A DNA stretch of 64,000 nucleotides from positions 3,424,001 through 3,488,000 of the forward strand of contig JASGHJ010000002.1 of the NCBI GenBank assembly GCA_047602405.1. The letters are read 5' to 3'. Below the pieces are notes generated by a model, which made no database searches, was not told the DNA's origin, and worked only from the letters and a program-made list of their open reading frames with translations. Source of the stretch: Anaeromyxobacteraceae bacterium. GTDB lineage: Bacteria; Myxococcota; Myxococcia; Myxococcales; Anaeromyxobacteraceae. The position numbers and the translations under genes were made by a program. This document shows positions 17,652 to 64,000 of this stretch, piece by piece (positions within the stretch are counted from its first letter, which is position 1; the number at the start of each line of letters is the position of its first letter).

Positions 17652-17695
17652 GTCCCAGAGCGCCCCGCCCCGCCCGCTGCTACAACGTCCCCCGC

Positions 17696-55838: not shown

Positions 55839-57470
55839 ATGGCCAACGCCAACCTCCGCATCCCCGCGCCCCGCAACGAGCCGGTCCTCAACTACGCCCC
55901 GGGCTCGCCCGAGAAGGCGGCCCTCAAGGCGAAGCTCGCCGAGCTCGGCTCGAAGGAGCTCGAGATCCCGCTCGTCATCGGTGGCCGGGAGATCCGCACC
56001 GGCCGGCTCGCCGACGCGCGCGTGCCCCACCGCCACGCGCAGCGGCTCGCCCGCTGGCACCAGGCCGGCCAGGAAGAGGTGAAGGCCGCCATCGAGGCCG
56101 CGCGCGTCGCGCGCAAGCCCTGGGCCGCGATGTCGCCCTACGACCGCGCCGCGATCTTCATCAAGGCCGCCGAGCTCCTCGCCGGCCCGTGGCGGCAGGT
56201 GCTGAACGCCGCGACCATGCTCGGCCAGTCGAAGACGCCCTTCCAGGCGGAGATCGACTCGGCCTGCGAGATCATCGACTTCTGGCGCTTCAACGCGCAC
56301 TTCATGGAGCGGATCCTCGAGGACCAGCCGTATTCGCCGCCCGGGCAGTGGAACCAGCTCGAGGCGCGGCCGCTCGAGGGCTTCGTCTTCGCGGTGACGC
56401 CGTTCAACTTCACGTCCATCGCCGCGAACCTGCCCACCGCGCCCGCGCTGATGGGCAACACGGTGGTCTGGAAGCCGGCCTCCTCCGCGGTCTACTCCGC
56501 GTGGTTCGTGCTGAAGCTCCTCGAGGCCGCGGGGCTCCCGCCCGGCGTCATCAACTTCGTGCCCGGCTCCGGCCGCGCGGTCGGCGACCCCGTCCTCGCG
56601 AGCCCCGAGCTCGCCGGCCTGCACTTCACCGGCTCGACCGGCGTGTTCCAGAACATGTGGAAGACGATCGGCGAGAACCTGCCGCGCTACCACACCTACC
56701 CGCGCATCGTCGGGGAGACCGGCGGCAAGGACTTCATCTTCGTGCACCCGTCGGCCGACCCCGACGCGGCCGCGACCGCGCTCGTGCGCGGCGCGTTCGA
56801 GTTCCAGGGCCAGAAGTGCTCGGCCGCCTCGCGCGCGTACGTCCCGGAGAGCCTGTGGCCGGCGATCCGCGACCGCGTGCTCGGGATGGTCACCGAGATC
56901 AAGATGGGTGAGGTCGAGGACTTCACCACGTTCATGGGCGCGGTCATCGACAAGGACGCGTACGACCGGATCAAGGGGTACATCGAGGTCGCGCGGTCCT
57001 CGTCGCAGGCGAAGATCCTGATCGGCGGGAAGTGCGACGACTCGAAGGGCTGGTTCGTCGAGCCGACCGTCGTAGAGACCGTGAACCCGCGCTTCCAGCT
57101 CATGGAGGAGGAGATCTTCGGGCCGGTGCTGACGCTCTACGTGTACTCGGACGCGAAGCTCGACGAGGCGGTGGAGCTCTGCGGCTCGACGTCGCCGTAC
57201 GCGCTCACCGGCGCCGTGTTCGCGCGCGACCGCGAGGCGGTGGTGGAGCTGCGCGCCCGGCTCGTCGACGCGGCCGGGAACTTCTACGTGAACGACAAGC
57301 CCACCGGCGCGGTGGTCGGGCAGCAGCCGTTCGGCGGCGCGCGCGCGTCGGGCACGAACGACAAGGCGGGATCGATCGCGAACCTGTACCGGTGGACGTC
57401 GCTCCGGGCGATCAAGGAGAACTTCGATCCGCCGACGCGGTTCGAGTATCCGTACATGAAGGAGAAGTGA
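55839..57470 (+). CDS. pruA: L-glutamate gamma-semialdehyde (P5C) dehydrogenase
   Basis: NEPVLNYAPGS, PFNFTSI, FTGST, GETGGK, FQGQKCSA, EEIFGP, QQPFGGAR.SGTNDK. Confidence 0.95.
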   Translation: MANANLRIPAPRNEPVLNYAPGSPEKAALKAKLAELGSKELEIPLVIGGREIRTGRLADARVPHRHAQRLARWHQAGQEEVKAAIEAARVARKPWAAMSPYDRAAIFIKAAELLAGPWRQVLNAATMLGQSKTPFQAEIDSACEIIDFWRFNAHFMERILEDQPYSPPGQWNQLEARPLEGFVFAVTPFNFTSIAANLPTAPALMGNTVVWKPASSAVYSAWFVLKLLEAAGLPPGVINFVPGSGRAVGDPVLASPELAGLHFTGSTGVFQNMWKTIGENLPRYHTYPRIVGETGGKDFIFVHPSADPDAAATALVRGAFEFQGQKCSAASRAYVPESLWPAIRDRVLGMVTEIKMGEVEDFTTFMGAVIDKDAYDRIKGYIEVARSSSQAKILIGGKCDDSKGWFVEPTVVETVNPRFQLMEEEIFGPVLTLYVYSDAKLDEAVELCGSTSPYALTGAVFARDREAVVELRARLVDAAGNFYVNDKPTGAVVGQQPFGGARASGTNDKAGSIANLYRWTSLRAIKENFDPPTRFEYPYMKEK

Positions 57471-57482
57471 CCACCTCGGCCG

Positions 57483-57545
57483 GACCGGGAGTCACCCGGG
57501 GTGGACCGAGAGTTCCCGCGGGGCGACCGGGAGTCACCCCGGGTG
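57483..57545 (+). repeat. GAGT-core repeat cluster 1 (3 x 21 bp)
   Basis: GACCGGGAGTCACCCGGGGTG / GACCGAGAGTTCCCGCGGGGC / GACCGGGAGTCACCCCGGGTG. Confidence 0.8.
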
Positions 57546-57613
57546 TACCACCTAGGACAGGCTCCGATCGGACCCGTTGCATCCCGGCGGGGCGTCGGGA
57601 AGGATGCCGGGCC

Positions 57614-58171
57614 ATGACCCGACTCCAAGTCACCCTCGCAGCGTCGCTCCTCGCCCTCGCCACCCCGGCCCTGGCCGCGCCTCCGGCCGCGCAGGCCCAG
57701 CCGGTGCAGCAGCCCGCGGGCGCGGGGCCCAAGATCGGCCTCGGCATCGCCCTCAACTCCGACCCGACCTTCTCGAGCCCGGCCGAGATCCTCGTGCCGA
57801 TCATCCTCAACCCGACGATCCGGGTGGAGCCGTCGCTGGGCATCTTCTCCCGCAACGTCGACGGCGGCACCGACACCCGCAACTTCGTGCTCGGCGTCGG
57901 CGTCCTCGCGGGCAAGCAGGTCGCCCCGGCCACCGAGCTGCTCTTCGGCGGCCGCCTCAAGCTCGGCTTCGCGAAGTTCGACAACGGCGTCACCTCCGAC
58001 TCGGGCACCGACATCCTCATCGCGGGCGCCGCGGGCGCGGAGCACTGGTTCTCCGACAAGTTCTCGCTCGGCCTCGAGGCGCAGCTCGGCTACTACGCGC
58101 TCTCGAACGTGTCCGGCGACGCCTCGGGCTTCTTCACGCAGGGCGCGCTGACCGCGCGCGTGTACTTCTAG
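57614..58171 (+). CDS. Small outer-membrane beta-barrel protein
   Basis: Signal peptide, amphipathic strands, C-terminal ARVYF. Confidence 0.75.
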   Translation: MTRLQVTLAASLLALATPALAAPPAAQAQPVQQPAGAGPKIGLGIALNSDPTFSSPAEILVPIILNPTIRVEPSLGIFSRNVDGGTDTRNFVLGVGVLAGKQVAPATELLFGGRLKLGFAKFDNGVTSDSGTDILIAGAAGAEHWFSDKFSLGLEAQLGYYALSNVSGDASGFFTQGALTARVYF

Positions 58172-58221
58172 GCGCGACGCGGCCCGTCACGGCGGGCCGA
58201 CCGCGCGTTGCGCAGTGCACG

Positions 58222-58249
58222 GGAGCCGGCGCCTCGCGGCGCCGGCTCC
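58222..58249 (+). terminator. GC-rich hairpin, possible terminator
   Basis: GGAGCCGGCGCC-TCGC-GGCGCCGGCTCC, a perfect 12-bp stem with no U-tract. Confidence 0.45.
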
Positions 58250-58289
58250 TCGCGTCTCCGCGCGTCAAGCGCGGTCCTCCGCACCCCGG

Positions 58290-58400
58290 TGGGCCCATCC
58301 CGTCCCTGGGCCCATCCCGTCCCGGAGTTCCCCGCGCGCGCGCCGTCCCAGAGTTCCCGCGCCCCGTCCCGGAGTTCCCCCGCGGCGGCCTTACTCTGGG
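58290..58400 (+). repeat. GAGT-core repeat cluster 2
   Basis: 17-bp tandem duplication 58290-58323; CCGTCCCRGAGTTCCC at 58317, 58343 and 58364; inverted core ACTCTGGG at 58393-58400. Confidence 0.8.
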
Positions 58401-58498
58401 TGCCCCAAGTGAGCGCAGGGTGAAAGGTGGTTTGCAGTCCCACCGAGGCCGTATGGGTTCGCTGACCGGCCGATCCGCGCGCCGGAGGGGAGAACTCG

Positions 58499-60766
58499 AT
58501 GGCGACGAAACCTGCCCGGGGCGCGCTCGTCGCGCTCACCTCGTCGTTCCTCGCGCTCGCCGCCTGCGGCGGCCCGCCGTCCGAGGCCGAGGGCGCCCTC
58601 GCGCCGCCGCCGCCCGACTCCGCCCTCGCCTGCGACTGCAGCTGGCACTCGGCGTTCGACCTGTGCGTCACGTGCTGCGGCGACGTCGGCCAGGCGGTGT
58701 GCCCGTCCGGTGGCGCCTGCAAGCCGGGCCTCGTCTACAACGCCGCGAAGGCGGTCTGCGACAACCCTCCCCCGGCCTGCGGCTGCAGCTGGCGCTCGGC
58801 CTTCGACCTGTGCGTCACGTGCTGCGGCGACGTCGGCCAGGCCATCTGCCCGACGGGTGACTCGTGCAAGCCGGGGCTCCACTACGACGGCTCGACGACC
58901 CACTGCGAGCAGGCCTGCTCGTGGCACCAGACCGTGTTCGGCAACTGCTGCGGCGACGTCGGCCAGCCGATCTGCGTGAGCGGCGACGCCTGCAAGCCCG
59001 GCCTCCACTACGACGGCTCGACGACGCACTGCGAGCTGCCGTGCTCGTGGCACCAGTCGTCGTTCGGCAACTGCTGCGGCGACGTCGACCAGGTGCACTG
59101 CGATCCGCTCTCCGGCGACACCTGCAAGCCGGGCCTCGCCGTCGGCGTCGCGACCTGCCGTGACTTCCGGACCCCGGGCGAGACCTGCGGGCCGGACTAC
59201 CCGTGCAAGGACGGCTCGAGCTGCGCGCTCGTGGTCGACGCGAGCGCGCTCAAGCTCGAGTGCATGCTCGACAAGGACTCGAACGTCGTTGGCGACCCCG
59301 ACGCGTGCAAGGCCTTCTACAGCGCGGACATCGCCACCGGCGCGAAGAACAGCGGCGGGACGCTCAACTTCGGCGTGGGCGCACAGGGCTCGGTGGGTGT
59401 CGCGGGCGCGATCGAGACCGGCGTCTTCTACACGGAGGACGAGCGGTACGGCTGCTACGTGACCACCTGCTACGGGCTCGAGACGAACGTGGGCATCGGC
59501 GTGTACGGCGTGGTCGGCGAGTCGGACAAGTACGAGGACTTCAAGGGCCACTCGTTCGTGCTGAACCAGCTCGCCGGCATCGAGTTCGTCAGCTACATCA
59601 ACTCGCAGGGGTGGAACTCGAAGGAGGATCTCGGCGCGGGCAAGGCGCCGGTCTCCGCGAGCCAGGCGATCTCCATCGGGCTCGACATCATCCCGATCTC
59701 GGTGGGCGCGGCCGAGTGCGACACGATCACGCAGGTGGTCGTCGGGCAGGACACCGCGAGCCCGCCCGTCGCGCTGTGCCACGACGTCTCAATGACGCCC
59801 GCCACCGGATGCACCGCGGCCGTCTCGGTGAACAACGGGTCGTACAGCCCGACCGCCGGCGTAACGATCACGACGTCCCAGAGCCCCGCCGGCCCGTATC
59901 AGATCGGGAACACCCCGGTGACGCTCACCGCCACCGACTCGAACGGCCTCACGGCGACCTGCAGCGCGACGGTGACCGTGCTCGACGGCGTCCCCCCGGT
60001 CATCACCTGCCCCGCGAACGTCCGGGCCACGAACGAGGCCGGCCGCTGCGACGCCAGGGTCTCGTTCCCGGAGCCGGTCGCGACCGACACCTGCTCCGCG
60101 GTCGCGGCGAGCGCGACGCCGGCGTCGGGCTCCACGTTCGCCGTGGGCACGACCACGGTGAAGGGGCTCGCGCTCGACGAGTACCTCAACACGGCTTCGT
60201 GCTCGTTCACGGTGACGGTGGTGGACGCCGAGGCGCCCGGGATCACGGCGCCGCCGGACATGGTGGTCGACGCGACGATGCCGACGGGCGCGGTGGTGAG
60301 CTACCCGGCGTTCACCGCGACGGACAACTGCGCGGGGTTGGCGGTGGACGCCGAGCCGCCGTCCGGAAGCGTGTTCCCGATCGACCCGGACCCCGCCGGC
60401 TTCACGGAGGTGGTGGGCCGGGCGACGGACGCCGCGGGGAACGTCTCGACGGCGTCGTTCAGGGTGCACGTGAAGGGCGCGCGGGAGCAACTCTCGGACC
60501 TCCTGGCCTTCGTGGAGACCCTGCGGCATCACGAGGGGCTGGAGCACCGGCTCCTGCAGGCGATCCGCGCGCTCGACCGGGGCCGCACGTTCCAGACGTG
60601 CCACACGCTCGGGGAGATCATGGAGGAGCTCGGGGAACAGGAGCGGGAGCGGTGCCCACAGGAGGAGACCGCGGCGCTCCTCACGGCCGCCGGGCGGATC
60701 CGCGACGTGCTGTCCTGCCAGACTTGCCGCGAGGAGGAAGACGAGGGCCTCGCGGACGCGCGCTGA
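58499..60766 (+). CDS. Lipoprotein with 4 Cys-rich repeats and HYR domains
   Basis: Lipobox LAAC; 4x CSW...CCGDV.Q..C...CKPGL; HYR motifs (PPVITCPAN, SGSTFAVGTTTV, ATDAAGN). Confidence 0.8.
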   Translation: MATKPARGALVALTSSFLALAACGGPPSEAEGALAPPPPDSALACDCSWHSAFDLCVTCCGDVGQAVCPSGGACKPGLVYNAAKAVCDNPPPACGCSWRSAFDLCVTCCGDVGQAICPTGDSCKPGLHYDGSTTHCEQACSWHQTVFGNCCGDVGQPICVSGDACKPGLHYDGSTTHCELPCSWHQSSFGNCCGDVDQVHCDPLSGDTCKPGLAVGVATCRDFRTPGETCGPDYPCKDGSSCALVVDASALKLECMLDKDSNVVGDPDACKAFYSADIATGAKNSGGTLNFGVGAQGSVGVAGAIETGVFYTEDERYGCYVTTCYGLETNVGIGVYGVVGESDKYEDFKGHSFVLNQLAGIEFVSYINSQGWNSKEDLGAGKAPVSASQAISIGLDIIPISVGAAECDTITQVVVGQDTASPPVALCHDVSMTPATGCTAAVSVNNGSYSPTAGVTITTSQSPAGPYQIGNTPVTLTATDSNGLTATCSATVTVLDGVPPVITCPANVRATNEAGRCDARVSFPEPVATDTCSAVAASATPASGSTFAVGTTTVKGLALDEYLNTASCSFTVTVVDAEAPGITAPPDMVVDATMPTGAVVSYPAFTATDNCAGLAVDAEPPSGSVFPIDPDPAGFTEVVGRATDAAGNVSTASFRVHVKGAREQLSDLLAFVETLRHHEGLEHRLLQAIRALDRGRTFQTCHTLGEIMEELGEQERERCPQEETAALLTAAGRIRDVLSCQTCREEEDEGLADAR

Positions 60767-60793
60767 CCCGGCCTGATCCTGACCCGGCCTCGG

Positions 60794-60920
60794 CCCGTCC
60801 CTCCCGGGGCCCGTCCCAGAGTCCCCGGGGCCCGTCCCAGAGTTCCGGCGGGGCGGGCCCTCCCAGAGTAATCCCGTGCTCTCCCGGAGTCGGGCGGGTG
60901 GGGGGAGTCGGGCGGGTGGG
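60794..60920 (+). repeat. GAGT-core repeat cluster 3
   Basis: CCGTCCCAGAGT at 60811 and 60832; variants with GAGT at 60866, 60887 and 60905. Confidence 0.8.
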
Positions 60921-60960
60921 GCCGGTCGGACGCGGTCCGGTCCTGGGGTAGAACGGACGG

Positions 60961-62028
60961 ATGAAGCACCTCCCCCTCGTCGTGCCCGCCGTCGGGCTCG
61001 CCCTCCTTGTGGGGGGTGCCTTCCTGCCCTCGCATGGCCTCCTCGACCTTCTCCGTGGGGTCGTGCTCGTGGCCGCGGTGCTCGCGGCCGTGCACCACGC
61101 GGAGGTCGTCGCCCACCGCGTGGGCGAGCCGTTCGGCACGCTCGTGCTCGCCCTCGCGGTCACGGTCATCGAGGTGGCCCTGGTCGTCTCGATGATGCTC
61201 GCCGCGGGTCCCGAGAAGGCCGCGCTCGCCCGCGACACGATCTTCTCGACGGTGATGATCATCGCGAACGGGGTGATCGGCCTCTGCGTCCTCGTCGGCG
61301 GCCTGCGTCATCGTGAGCAGAGCTTCAAGGTGGAGGGCATGGGGCCGGCGTTCGCGTCCCTCGTGACGCTCGCCACCCTGGTGCTCGTGCTCCCGACCTT
61401 CACGCAGTCGGCGCCTGGCCCCGTGTACTCGCACAGCCAGCTCGTCTTCGCCGGGCTCGCGTCGCTGACGCTCTGGGGCGTCGTCACCTTCGCCCAGACG
61501 GTGCGGCATCGCGACTACTTCCTCCCGCCGGGCGGCGTCCTCGCCGACGACATCCACGCGGAGCCCCCGTCCGCGAGGCGGGCGCTCCTCTCGCTCGCCC
61601 TGCTCTTCGTCTCGCTCGTGTCGGTCGTCGGGCTCGCGAAGGTGCTCTCGCCTCGCGTCGAGGAAGCCGTCGCGGCGGCCGGCGCGCCGGAGTCGGTCAT
61701 CGGCATCGCCATCGCGCTCGTGGTGCTCCTGCCGGAGACGGTCGCCGCGGTGCGGGCGGCGCGGGCGGATCGCCTCCAAACCAGCCTCAACCTCGCGCTC
61801 GGCTCGGCGCTCGCGACCATCGGCCTGACCATCCCGGTCGTCGTGGCGGCCTCGCTCGTCATCGGCTTCCCGCTCGTACTCGGGCTCGAGGGGAAGGACC
61901 TCGTCCTCCTGCTCCTCACCGCGGTGGTGGGTGCGGTAACGCTCGGTCCGGGCCGGACCAGCATCCTCCAAGGCGCGATCCACCTTGTGGTGTTCGCGGC
62001 CTTCCTGTTCCTGGCGCTCGTACCGTAG
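60961..62028 (+). CDS. chaA: CaCA-family Ca2+(Na+)/H+ antiporter (ChaA-like)
   Basis: HHAEVVAHRVGEPFGTLVL..VIE, LLPE, QTSLNLALGSALATIGLTIP. Confidence 0.85.
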   Translation: MKHLPLVVPAVGLALLVGGAFLPSHGLLDLLRGVVLVAAVLAAVHHAEVVAHRVGEPFGTLVLALAVTVIEVALVVSMMLAAGPEKAALARDTIFSTVMIIANGVIGLCVLVGGLRHREQSFKVEGMGPAFASLVTLATLVLVLPTFTQSAPGPVYSHSQLVFAGLASLTLWGVVTFAQTVRHRDYFLPPGGVLADDIHAEPPSARRALLSLALLFVSLVSVVGLAKVLSPRVEEAVAAAGAPESVIGIAIALVVLLPETVAAVRAARADRLQTSLNLALGSALATIGLTIPVVVAASLVIGFPLVLGLEGKDLVLLLLTAVVGAVTLGPGRTSILQGAIHLVVFAAFLFLALVP

Positions 62029-62052
62029 CGGGCCGTACCAGCGAAGCGACGG

Positions 62053-62133
62053 CGACGGCGGTCCATCCCGGAGTCACGGCGGACGGTCCGACGGCGGTCC
62101 ATCCCGGAGTCACGGCGGACGGTCCCGGAGTAC
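62053..62133 (+). repeat. GAGT-core repeat cluster 4 (perfect 36-bp tandem duplication), directly upstream of the RAYT gene
   Basis: CGACGGCGGTCCATCCCGGAGTCACGGCGGACGGTC x2 (62053-62124), then a third core GTCCCGGAGTAC. Confidence 0.85.
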
Positions 62134-62223
62134 CGCCGATCGGCCGGTGGTCCGCGGCGCGGACCCTCCGCGATCAGCCCGAATACGTGATCACGCAGGC
62201 TTACGCCCGGCACGGCTCCTGCG

Positions 62224-63129
62224 ATGCAGCGCCGTATGACCGCTCCCCGCCAGGTGCTCCAGGGCAAGACTTCACTCGTCACCCGCCGCACGGCCAGACA
62301 GGAATTCCTCCTCAAGCCGGCCAAGTACACCAGCGCACTCTTCGGCTATCTGCTCGCCGTCGCGTCCTCACGCTATGGGCTCGACGTCCACGCCTTCGTG
62401 GTGATGTCCAACCATTACCACCTCGTCGTCACCGACCATCACGCGCGGTTACCGCTCTTCTGCCAGTACCTCGACGGCCTGTGCGCGAGAGCGATGAACG
62501 TGGAGTGGGGCCGGTCGGAGGACTTCTGGGGGCCCCCGACCTTCAGCGACGTCACGCTCGTCACAAAGGAAGCGGTCCTCGCGAAGGTGCTCTACACGCT
62601 CACCAACCCCGTGGAGGCCGAGCTCGTTGCGAAGGGCAGCGAGTGGCCCGGGCTCTGGTCGAGCCCCGAGCTCATCGGCGCCGGCACGCTCACCTTCGAG
62701 CGTCCGGAGGGCTTCTTCGACCCCAAGGGCGTGATGCCAGAGCAGGCGTTCCTCACCCTCAAGACACCGTCCGGTTACACGAGGGAAGACTTCCACAGGC
62801 TGCTCACCGCGCAGCTCACCTCCTTCGAGGCGGACATGGCCAAAGCGCTCGAGCATCTCGGCCGCCGGGTCCTCGGGGTGAAGAAGGTCCTGAAGCAGCG
62901 CCACACCGACCGGCCGGCGGCCCGGGCGCAGCGCAGCGAGCTCAAGCCGCGCATCGCCACGCGGGACAAGTGGAGGCGGATCGAGGCGCTCGGGCGGCTG
63001 AAGGCGTTCCTCGAGGAGTATCAGGAGGCCATCACCCGGTACCGGGGCGGAGCGCACGACACGCGCTTCCCGGCCGGCACGTACTGGATGCGCGTCTGCT
63101 TCGGCGTGGCGTGCGCCGGGTCCGGGTAG
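62224..63129 (+). mobile_element. RAYT-type HUH/Y1 transposase (IS200/IS605 superfamily), long form
   Basis: VTRRT...FLL, VVMSNHYHLVV (HUH), FW, LYTLTNPVEAELV...WPG (catalytic Tyr + NPV). Start could be 62224 or 62236. Confidence 0.85.
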
Positions 63130-63154
63130 AAGGCCCGAGCGCGTCCGGTTCGGT

Positions 63155-64000
63155 TCAGCCCGGTAGCCGCACGGTCACCGTCGTCCCCTTCCCGACCTCG
63201 CTCGTGACGCTCACCTCGCCGCCGTGCGCGTCGACGATGCGCTTCACGAGCGCGAGCCCGAGCCCCGTCCCGCCGGTACCGCGCTGACGGCTGCGGTCGG
63301 TCCGGAAGAAGGGCGTGAAGAGGCGCGGCAAGTCCGCTGCCTCGATCCCGATACCCCGGTCCTGCACCTCGAGCACGGCGGTGCCGCCTTCGACGCGCAC
63401 CCGCACCGTGATCGGCGCGGGCGCTTCGGAGTACTTCCCAGCATTGTCGACGAGGTTCGCGACCAGCCGCCGCAGCAGCGCGGCGTCGCCCTGGACCGCG
63501 ACCCCTGCGCCCCGACTCTCGGATGGCACGGTGGAACTCTGGGACGGACCTGCGTCGGGGAGACTCTGGGACGGGCTGGGGAGACTCCCGGACGGGGTGA
63601 TGAGCTCGACCACCCGGGCGGGGTGTGCCTCCCCCCACCGCCCCGCCGCCTCCCTCGCCACCACCTCGAGATCCACCGGGGCGCGCTGGATCGGCCACCG
63701 CGAACCCTGGCCGCTCGCGGCCTCCAGGTTCGCCATGTCGAGCCGCGCGGCGGCGAGGACGTCCTCGACCAGCCGGTCCAGCTCGTCGAGGTCGGCCCCG
63801 ATGCCGGCGAGGTGCCGCCGCGCCTTCTCGAGGTCCCCCTCCGCCGCGAGCTCGAGCGCCACCCGGATGCGCGCCATGGGGGTCCTCAGCTCGTGCGACA
63901 CGTTCGCGAGCAGCTCCTGCTCCGACCGCACCAGCCGCTCGAGCCGCGCCGCGGCCTCGTCGAACGTCCGCCCGAGCTCGCCCACCTCGCCCCGGCCGCG
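63155..64000 (-). CDS. HAMP-domain sensor histidine kinase, 5'-truncated
   Basis: VSHELRTP, NLVDNAGKY, DRGIG, GTGLGL; frame is open to the window end. Confidence 0.9.
   Translation of the reverse strand, partial: RGRGEVGELGRTFDEAAARLERLVRSEQELLANVSHELRTPMARIRVALELAAEGDLEKARRHLAGIGADLDELDRLVEDVLAAARLDMANLEAASGQGSRWPIQRAPVDLEVVAREAAGRWGEAHPARVVELITPSGSLPSPSQSLPDAGPSQSSTVPSESRGAGVAVQGDAALLRRLVANLVDNAGKYSEAPAPITVRVRVEGGTAVLEVQDRGIGIEAADLPRLFTPFFRTDRSRQRGTGGTGLGLALVKRIVDAHGGEVSVTSEVGKGTTVTVRLPG
63509..63595 (-). repeat. GAGT-core repeat cluster 5, in frame inside the histidine kinase
   Basis: Minus strand CCGTCCGGGAGT, CCGTCCCAGAGT x2, CCATCCGAGAGT. Confidence 0.8.

Follow-up and report, generated by a model that had tools for sequence, protein, structure and literature searches.

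Head-to-tail arrays of a terminal inverted motif around a TIRtron-like Y1/HUH transposase gene in Anaeromyxobacteraceae: a probable origin by nicking and re-copying of element ends

Introduction

Metal-dependent nicking with a 5'-phosphotyrosine is the hallmark of the HUH superfamily. Rolling-circle HUH elements such as IS91/ISCR carry an ori at one end and a ter at the other and are copied whole. Clustered families of terminal inverted repeats (TIRs) have been described for the TIRtron/TIRYT elements (Di Nocera et al. 2013, PMC3733652, section 16), where TIR copies in dimers and clusters are a trait of the group. TIRtron/TIRYT probably corresponds to TnpA_Y1 subclass 2.1 (Quentin et al. 2018, PMC6006769), which matches RAYT group 1 (Bertels et al. 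2017, PMC5581495). Within class 2, no group of these proteins is larger than subclass 2.1 (14.9% of species; PMC6006769), and literature searches returned no experimental study of it. The TIRYT examples carry a C-terminal HTH/Bac_DnaA_C-like domain, which is variable in 2.1.2. The REPtrons (TnpA_REP, RAYT groups 2 and 3) have a long-resident gene with variable flanking tandem repeats (PMC3333891, PMC8266576), for which a rolling-circle-like amplification model has been proposed, and a nick-prime-rejoin scheme already exists for BIME amplification (PMC3333891, Fig. 7B legend). The introduction of PMC8266576, which also names IS91/ISCR-type rolling-circle HUH elements, calls the spread of REP-like arrays unresolved.

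Here we analyzed a Y1/HUH transposase gene and the repeats around it in a 64-kb stretch of Anaeromyxobacteraceae DNA (64,000 nt, hereafter the window).

Results

The features of the locus are summarized in Table 1. A first-pass annotation of the window had listed five clusters of GAGT-containing units; all five were found with exactly the spacings given, as were perfect local duplications of 17 bp and 36 bp. The fifth cluster is inverted and lies to the right of the gene as annotated, but it is located in frame inside a histidine kinase gene and not in an intergenic gap. The isolated GAGT core placed at 17653 was not present, this site reading GTCCCAGAGC.

Table 1. Coordinates of genes, arrays and element parts in the window (GAGT positions with their spacings in brackets).
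Feature	Position	Strand	Remarks
pruA, glutamate gamma-semialdehyde dehydrogenase	55839..57470	+	host; TIGR01236 above cut-off
Array 1	57475..57537	+	pruA-OMP gap, host DNA outside island; GACCG-type cores; GAGT 57489/57510/57531 (21, 21)
Outer-membrane beta-barrel gene (OMP)	57614..58171	+	host, ancestral
Island: HYR, CAX and Y1 genes	58172..63154		lineage-specific, between OMP and kinase
Array 2	58290..58378	+	OMP-HYR gap; 17-bp perfect duplication (58290-58323) and three cores; GAGT 58325/58351/58372 (26, 21)
Single inverted core	58393..58402	-	closes array 2
Cys-rich HYR-domain protein gene	58499..60766	+	island
Array 3	60805..60912	+	HYR-CAX gap; units 21, 26, 21, 18 nt; GAGT 60819/60840/60866/60887/60905 (21, 26, 21, 18)
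Ca2+/H+ exchanger-family gene (CAX)	60961..62028	+	island
Array 4	62057..62113	+	two extra end copies, outward of left end; 36-bp perfect duplication (62053-62124); GAGT 62071/62107/62128 (36, 21)
Left terminal motif of element	62114..62134	+	core RGAG at 62127
Y1/HUH transposase gene	62236..63129	+	297 aa from conserved Met; ORF open from 62224
Sensor histidine kinase	63155..64000	-	host; runs beyond window
Array 5	63512..63601	-	inverted, four units of 21, 27, 21 and 21 nt; in frame within kinase gene; GAGT 63518/63539/63566/63587 (21, 27, 21)

TCCSRGAGT was detected 18 times in the window versus 2.87 ± 1.53 times in shuffles, none of 100 shuffles reaching 18, and 14 of the 18 occurrences fall within the five arrays. 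Seven of the 9 copies of CCGTCCCRGAGT in the 6.16-Mb genome are also in the window. Genome-wide, the 276 [AT]CCSRGAGT cores form only seven arrays of at least three cores: the five around the Y1 gene, one located five kb upstream of a paralogue and one on C1 that is a perfect 13-bp microsatellite. As the annotation had noted, the repeat is concentrated near the gene. No hairpin beyond chance was found in 17 repeat units (folding z-scores -1.6 to +1.3 versus shuffles) and the motif consensus, CCCGACCSAGAGTA, contains no GTAG, in agreement with the earlier view that the units are not GTAG-hairpin REPs.

The Y1 protein contains N59-H60-Y61-H62 (HUH), Y120-x-x-x-N124-P125 and W141-S-S, with HUH and Y120/N124/P125 invariant in 20 aligned members. 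The spacing of 58 between HUH and YxxxNP lies within the range of TnpA_Y1 class 2 (about 58-67 residues), and NHYH together with W141-S142-S corresponds to the NH[YF]H and proximal Ser-Ser tail of subclass 2.1 as given in Table 1 of PMC6006769; a word search of the available supplements returned no Anaeromyxobacter entry. Pfam Y1_Tnp matched 18 of the 20 members at E<=0.1, and the NCBIfam REP_Tyr_transpos score of the Y1 protein was 44.1 bits, below the cut-off of 80. The closest fold to the protein model (pLDDT 86.5) was that of TnpA_REP 4ER8 (Z 14.5, rmsd 3.0 over 153 residues). The Y1 protein ends in a clade-specific C-terminal extension of about 150 aa, which gave a poor model when folded alone (pLDDT 52.6); no Pfam HTH or DnaA_C match was obtained among the 20 members. 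The dN/dS of the gene versus the sister locus was 0.17.

In relatives, the motif CCCGWCCS|RGAGTA (position 0 between S and R) was found at the left ends of 90 of 99 loci, a count that is partly circular since the motif matrix was trained on 81 of these ends, and inverted at the right ends of 76 of 97; opposite-strand controls gave 2/99 and 0/97 respectively. These counts show that the window repeat, already assigned to the Y1/HUH gene in the annotation, is not a REP but the inverted motif found at the termini of a Myxococcota Y1/HUH element. Conservation covers some 14 bp of the motif (-8 to +5) but only 79-89% at its T, and copies break at -13 and 0 rather than at GAGT, which speaks against GAGT as a guide or cleavage tetranucleotide. 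A true 21-bp period was not retained either: 21 is only the modal spacing (13/152, range 18 to 79) and also about the shortest unit that the matrix can score. The outer flanks of the ends are C-rich and 65 of 166 ends bear outer exact copies, whose number differs between strains. In the window copy of the element the left motif is placed as in relatives, 101-130 nt before the start, and runs on into a leader common to the paralogues; the usual right end (about +230) is absent because the kinase stop is only 25 bp from the Y1 stop.

Since its repeat is a terminal inverted motif, the element is TIRtron/TIRYT-like (PMC3733652, PMC6006769), and the "undescribed RAYT/repeat system" of the annotation has a layout described under that name. 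Both have a Y1 HUH gene that encodes NHYH, YxxxNP and a WSS tail, motifs inverted at the two termini and spaced at a roughly constant distance from the gene, no REP, and end copies in dimers or clusters. A CAGAGT core is common to this motif and to the canonical GGGGTCAG-type TIR next to L228, a related transposase (31% identity in the core, hhalign probability 98.4%). Only this inner part is shared: the outer half is CCCGWCCS here but GGGGWSAS in the majority TIRtron type, a motif that other TIRs also lack (PMC3733652). With the REPtrons the locus shares its closest solved fold, a long-resident gene and variable flanking tandem repeats. Yet REPtrons have a stem-loop with GT[AG]G at its foot whereas the units here have neither GTAG nor a stable hairpin, the arrays are direct truncated copies unlike REP/BIME, the copies are tens and local rather than hundreds genome-wide, and the breakpoint is set by distance rather than by a CT/CA dinucleotide as in TnpA_REP (PMC8266576). 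The absence of a GTAG hairpin, the REP_Tyr_transpos score and the low repeat number do not fit a RAYT sensu stricto. The Y1 HUH core fold is also that of IS200/IS605 TnpA (IS608, ISDra2), but these proteins are half as long and have YxxxQ, and their ends are same-strand hairpins with guide tetranucleotides, not inverted on opposite strands. Unlike recently mobile IS200/IS605 copies, the element stays at orthologous sites: every paralogue site tested was also filled in genome G026, so that none showed a recent insertion opposite an empty site. The length of 297 aa, YxxxNP, the inverted ends and these filled sites do not fit IS200/IS605. The fixed origin and variable termination predicted here resemble IS91/ISCR; unlike in IS91/ISCR, both ends would act as origins, with products mostly of 13-60 nt.

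The OMP and kinase genes are ancestral neighbours split by the island, as pruA, OMP and kinase are adjacent, without a Y1 gene, in 7 other genomes. Of 92 family genomes, only 2 contain the N-terminal part of the HYR protein. Array 5 falls in the linker that joins the DHp and ATPase domains of the kinase and encodes an in-frame insertion of about 25 residues that is absent from 26/26 other aligned rows, the sister excepted. The comparison of empty and filled sites, which the annotation had suggested, showed neither arrays nor kinase insertion in relatives without the Y1 gene, with 0-1 core per ~3.5-kb locus. In the sister locus (L008), two cores were found for array 1, array 2 was missing from the collinear gap, array 3 was present with different spacers, and one core occupied the position of array 4; the last unit of array 3 in the window (60905) is degenerate (matrix score -32). 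In array 5, the sister was identical at 36/40 core and 33/50 spacer positions (674/732 in the rest of the kinase gene). The absence of the HYR, CAX and Y1 island from 7 relatives and the location of arrays 2-4 at its junctions, all pointing to the gene, would fit a cassette array in which each array is a former element end and HYR and CAX were captured successively. Such an origin is very improbable: arrays 1 and 5 are not part of the island but occupy ancestral genes and gaps, the sister with the same genes has no array 2, eleven other CAX homologues in the family have no Y1 gene and 0-1 core in flanks of about 1.5 kb, and selection alone would also give intergenic placement. The arrays occupy ancestral host DNA outside the element, beside a long-resident gene under purifying selection.

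Among the 157 outer exact copies, -13 was the start of 58, -14 of 22 and -15 of 12, the last two being the tail expected of chance matches. After removal of length bias, the nearest copy started at -13 in 20/47 ends and at -13 to -16 in 30/47 (12/23 and 18/23 per genome or record), while unrelated ends gave -13 in 4/770. Random duplications should start there in 2.6%, which makes enzyme-independent slippage of C-rich ends, with selection for protein-binding sites, extremely unlikely; it would account for the C-rich flanks and for conserved cores between diverged spacers, but not for the restriction of newly seeded host-gene arrays to places that the Y1 gene has reached. There was no base preference at -13 (G16, T7, A6, C5), nor any base or dinucleotide preference at the stops. 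Clean junctions were seen in only 23 of 54 nearest copies. End copies have a fixed start 13 nt outside RGAG and a variable stop, often at 0 or about +10 and sometimes much deeper. Near-identical copy groups L071-L075 and L089 share sequence out to about -13, and in L110 a left-end copy 437 nt upstream is identical from -13 on and includes residues 1-105 of the gene; against the rule, groups L082, L091 and L105 share only to about -9. In the window, all three units of array 4, which arose by the 36-bp duplication, begin GGCGG at -13. The start of the 17-bp duplication, in contrast, is at -17, and the older units are too diverged for a start-point test.

Two further TIR lineages follow the -13 rule in a looser form. 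In one, with the GAGGTGTC motif, 28 of 39 pairs (from 8 of 23 loci) start at -13 to -17 and 31 of 39 stop at 0 to +2. In canonical GGGGTCAGAGT arrays, -13 forms a secondary start peak (12/107), 35/107 starts being at -6/-7, positions forced by the search pattern; only 6 of 80 of these loci have a Y1 gene in the DNA examined.

The stops bear on two other enzymatic schemes. A cut at 0 between CCS and RGAG, alone or staggered with an other-strand cut 13 nt away, followed by repair slippage that leaves the outer 13 nt doubled in the manner of a target-site duplication, would fit the 31/157 copies stopping exactly at 0, the stops of the GAGGTGTC lineage and the end of the window's 17-bp duplication at 0. 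We regard it as unlikely, as it leaves unexplained the -13 start of copies reaching +8 and beyond (34/94). Quite improbable is the excision, by two same-strand cuts (one fixed at -13, the second of low specificity), of small single-stranded end circles that integrate again close by, a scheme put forward for REP/BIME (PMC3333891, Fig. 7, model A). Units with a fixed start and a variable stop would result here too, and nearby orphan ends could be seeded, but the stops lack the dinucleotide preference of the CT/CA sites of TnpA_REP (PMC8266576) and units of 13-21 nt would be very short for circles.

The co-occurrence proposed in the annotation was borne out among 92 genomes: at least 13 motif copies were present in 37/63 genomes with the clade (median 14, control 3) and 0/29 without it (median 4, control 4), related genomes not being independent. 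CCNGWCCSRGAGTH has 1-71 copies per genome, 14 in this one. Orphan sites within 65 kb of a Y1 gene were 11/13 in G001 and 12/13 in G002 (1.3 expected), about one observation because most sites are common to both; little or no halo was seen in G003 (1/9) and G006 (2/10). Copies thus cluster near the gene in some genomes, not in all. Cluster polarity is weak elsewhere (30 toward the gene, 16 away), orphan clusters and inverted pairs of the end motif occur, many orphans read AGAGTCRTT and differ from the nearest left end, and four of 7 paralogues in this genome (C, D, F, G) have no orphan arrays.

Discussion

We consider it probable that the arrays consist of truncated copies, joined head to tail, of the inverted motif that ends a TIRtron-like Y1/HUH element, and that its own transposase made them through a nick at -13 and re-copying of the tip. 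The Y1 protein would bind the core, nick the strand reading toward the element 13 nt outside RGAG (in the window, predicted between 62113 and 62114) and remain on the new 5' end as phosphotyrosine. A host polymerase would extend the 3'-OH into the end with displacement of the old strand, and stall; attack of the new 3'-OH on the phosphotyrosine would then leave one more truncated copy. With a stop at +8 the unit would be 21 bp (13+8), and in the kinase gene units in multiples of 3 would survive. More speculatively, a short end might occasionally be transferred or template-switched in cis to nearby DNA, producing orphan ends kilobases away, which might then stutter by the same nick-extend-rejoin cycle and diverge between cores.

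A broader reading is possible but tentative: a cis-acting domesticated HUH "end-writer" that measures 13 nt from its motif and nicks, whereupon the host polymerase adds truncated tip copies. It may seed the motif over kilobases, coding linkers included, and so continually remodel proteins and intergenic gaps nearby, while the gene itself does not move and paralogues are homogenised, with the -13 rule holding across TIRYT lineages with different motifs.

New here are the fixed -13 start, arrays in host DNA including the kinase insertion, and gene-proximal clustering in some genomes; no fixed -13 start, orphan-array halo or in-frame host insertion was found in the available text of PMC3733652, PMC6006769 and PMC5581495. 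The breakpoint statistics predict strand, phosphodiester and product, and provide genomic support for the nick-prime-rejoin model proposed for BIMEs. A -13 nick with tip re-copying would be the first testable mechanism for the TIRtron-like family. If true, an HUH enzyme would choose its cut by distance from a non-hairpin motif, not by hairpin and guide bases, and would be a local source of in-frame insertions into host proteins.

The repeat as the terminal motif of a Y1/HUH element

De-duplication of 116 hits left 100 distinct near-full-length loci. A left-end motif, CCCGWCCS|RGAGTA, was detected on the + strand 101–130 nt ahead of the start in 90/99 loci; this figure has some circularity, 81 of the left ends having served to train the matrix. 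The inverted motif was found 3' of the gene in 76/97 loci, mostly at +205 to +256, and this count is not circular. Opposite-strand controls gave 2/99 matches on the left and 0/97 on the right. In the window, the left end is the last unit before the gene, and the usual right end is missing. As expected from the first-pass annotation, clade and motif co-occur: the median number of motif copies is 14 in genomes with the clade vs 4 in those without, and at least 13 copies are present in 37/63 clade genomes vs 0/29 others, related genomes being non-independent. Together, these results make it highly probable that the repeat is the terminal motif of a Y1/HUH element.

A gene bounded by terminal motifs is the layout described for the TIRtron (PMC3733652, section 16), and PMC6006769 states that subclass 2.1 "probably" corresponds to TIRtrons and that no REPs were found there. 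The elements of the clade have this layout. Like a REPtron they would also amplify their flanking repeat, yet they fail REP tests. The CAGAGT core recurs in a canonical GGGGTCAG-type end beside a related transposase (locus L228), which carries an array of the same kind. The suggestion of a possibly undescribed RAYT/repeat system is not supported, as the layout is that of the known TIRtron. As far as literature searches reach, this kind of element is already known but without experimental study; word searches of literature and supplements for the clade or for a rule of fixed copy starts found nothing, and the figures and some supplements of two key papers may show such arrays.

The Y1/HUH gene and its clade

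The 297-aa protein carries NHYH, YxxxNP and WSS motifs in alignment and scores below the NCBIfam RAYT cut-off. The fold closest to its model is TnpA_REP (Z 14.5, rmsd 3.0 over 153 residues), residues beyond ~200 being barely tested by this whole-model search. Its ~150-aa extension has no Pfam match, and the C-terminal domain modelled alone gave a low-confidence model. With a dN/dS of 0.17 (0.14–0.31 for its neighbours), the gene is under purifying selection, as its neighbours are. Titled relatives belong to Anaeromyxobacteraceae and other Myxococcota, protein atlas matches are Myxococcota transposase clusters, and a plasmid search returned a distant relative only. The clade is present in 63/92 family genomes, and its profile matches 92/251 phylum genomes (a total that includes the unpublished row G257, used nowhere else), the weaker of which possibly represent other kinds of Y1 protein.

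The genome of the window (G000) holds seven clade copies. Empty sites were sought there for six copies of a second genome, G026; all were filled, and no direct-repeat target duplication was seen by eye among near-identical copies. Recent transposition and target-site duplication were set aside on this basis. The four paralogues at shared sites are 97.7–98.7% identical within G000, 99.3–100% within G026 and ~92% between the genomes, a pattern of concerted evolution among fixed-site copies. Judged by eye, locus L091 combines the left flank of L082/L099 with the right flank of L077, and flank pairing appears to differ between genomes for L091, L082, L077, L099, L092, L098 and L079. Such mixed pairing suggests that rearrangements may occur via element copies.

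Coordinates of clade genes, repeats and associated features
Feature	Location	Observation
Y1/HUH gene	window 62236..63129 (+)	Y1/HUH transposase, 297 aa
Left end of this gene	window 62127	core
Cys-rich repeat + HYR protein	window 58499-60766	lipoprotein-like signal; N-terminal part in only 2/92 family genomes
Paralogue E array	G000 C2:3732500-3732640 (L004)	6 units, 5 kb upstream; additional single cores at 0.6, 1.1 and 1.6 kb
Corresponding G026 array	L204:5010-5055	2 units
Microsatellite	G000 C1:2168260-2168450	perfect, intergenic, 13 bp, 14 copies, contains GACCGGGAGT; 53 kb from closest clade gene
Copies L002, L003, L005, L006	G000 C2:3257163, C2:2523923, C2:581817, C1:2221355	sites shared with G026 L205-L208
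Paralogue F	G000 C2:581817-582700	frameshifted near codon 52; same-site G026 copy matched full length
Left end + 5'-truncated gene copies	G001:C1:4620038; G006:C1:2631270 and 2634532	residues 1-105 and 1-117, next to intact genes
Internal-deletion derivative of clade gene	L221	
Inward-facing orphan-end pairs	L177:12830-12927; L178:1120-1295; L180:1635-1805; L191:7664-7878	100-210 bp apart; L180 pair in apparent coding sequence

Repeat arrays in the window and their origin in host DNA

The five GAGT clusters of the first-pass annotation and all their spacings were checked in the window and are real: 18 TCCSRGAGT matches are present vs 2.87 ± 1.53 in shuffles, far above chance. Only seven arrays of at least three cores exist in the whole genome: five surround the window Y1 gene, a sixth is located 5 kb upstream of a paralogue, and the last is the microsatellite. 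The fifth cluster proved to lie within the histidine-kinase reading frame. A folding test of the units ruled out the REP hairpin reading, in agreement with the initial view, and GAGT had to be abandoned as cleavage tetranucleotide since duplication breakpoints are located elsewhere. As for the proposed ~21-bp period, 21 is indeed the mode (13/152 spacings) but is also near the minimum unit that the matrix can detect; strict 10.5-bp helical periodicity was ruled out, spacings of 25–27 and 36 being common besides 21 and 32.

Seven other genomes have pruA, the OMP gene and the kinase gene adjacent without a Y1 gene, so HYR-CAX-Y1 is an island. These Y1-less loci, the empty sites whose comparison had been proposed, contain 0–1 core vs 6 on the + strand of the matching window stretch, and the ~25-residue linker insertion of the kinase is absent from 26/26 other kinase rows, the sister excepted (two loci were fetched twice, and two frameshifted rows were set aside). 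We therefore infer that array 1 (pruA-OMP gap) and array 5 (kinase, inverted) would have arisen in host DNA after arrival of the Y1 gene. At the ~89% identical sister locus, arrays 1, 3 (HYR-CAX) and 5 are present with different spacers, array 4 (before the Y1 gene) has one core vs three, and array 2 (OMP-HYR) is absent. Contigs from four sequencing runs carried the sister-type allele only and thus do not distinguish gain of array 2 here from loss in the sister. Among the sequencing runs listed as containing the sequence, none was an RNA run and no share exceeded 0.10. Between the two kinase genes, identity is 36/40 in cores, 33/50 in spacers and 674/732 in the remaining gene.

Cores patched into host genes were searched for by blastp (397 cores, 97 candidate frames); among seven spanning alignments, a clear insertion was seen in the kinase only. 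In L093 and L080, a livF-like ABC ATPase gene in the right flank contains, ~120–190 nt beyond the right end, an in-frame perfect end motif and is unchanged in length (ALTESSYAYV vs e.g. ALQLAHRAYV in G000 homologues, which are not true orthologues), a possible patch substitution.

Orphan cores around clade genes

Leaving out the window, its sister and one double locus, 683.5 kb of sequence contained 61 orphan cores (cores away from an element end) at a distance of 0.4–5 kb from a clade gene; 30 clusters face the gene and 16 face away. Orphan sites concentrate near the gene, as anticipated, in two complete genomes, where 11/13 (G001) and 12/13 (G002) lie within 65 kb of a gene (1.3 expected), but hardly or not at all in G003 (only 1/9) and G006 (only 2/10). 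Most orphan sites are common to G001 and G002; copy number changes, with a spacing of 20–21 bp.

Copies of the ends start at a fixed position

Outer exact copies were detected at 65/166 ends. Counting from the R of RGAG, the 157 copies start at -13 in 58 cases, -14 in 22 and -15 in 12, while their stops are scattered between -1 and +95, most often at 0 (31) and +9/+10 (33). When the length filter was removed, the nearest copy started at -13 at 20/47 ends and at -13 to -16 at 30/47; counted per genome or record, these values were 12/23 and 18/23. For comparison, a -13 start occurs in 2.6% of random duplications and in 4/770 comparisons of unrelated ends that have the motif in common. Position -13 shows no base constraint. 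The window arrays are compatible with this register, all three array 4 units opening with GGCGG at -13; the 17-bp duplication of array 2 departs from it, starting at -17. A spacing of 21 bp corresponds to 13+8.

In a distant lineage whose ends carry GAGGTGTC, 28/39 pairs have their start at -13 to -17 and 31/39 their stop at 0 to +2 (8/23 loci, anchor picked by eye, matches of at least 9 nt). Distant Myxococcota members (L255-L277) have an end motif of this GAGGTGTC...ACACCTC type, which differs from that of the window clade and is partly palindromic, and the same stutter arrays. Metagenome GGGGTCAGAGT arrays, of which only 6/80 have a Y1 gene within the DNA covered, show a secondary peak at -13 (12/107), 35 being at a forced -6/-7.

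A proposed nick-synthesis-rejoin cycle

Several explanations compete for these copies; the rivals of the cycle outlined below are cleavage at position 0 or in a staggered fashion, small-circle excision, cassette capture and plain slippage. Stops show no dinucleotide preference, and junctions are clean in only 23/54. Cleavage by HUH enzymes generates a 5'-phosphotyrosine together with a free 3'-OH (PMC8266576), and a nick-synthesis-rejoin scheme has been put forward for the amplification of BIMEs (PMC3333891, Fig. 7B legend). Here, a nick at -13 on the strand that reads toward the element would be followed by short displacement synthesis and rejoining, yielding a truncated copy of the end; these steps would leave copies whose 5' start is fixed and whose 3' stops vary. 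A step that seeds orphan ends can be put forward only tentatively. On the copy boundaries, we lean towards the nick-synthesis-rejoin cycle as the process that would make end copies around these Y1/HUH genes.
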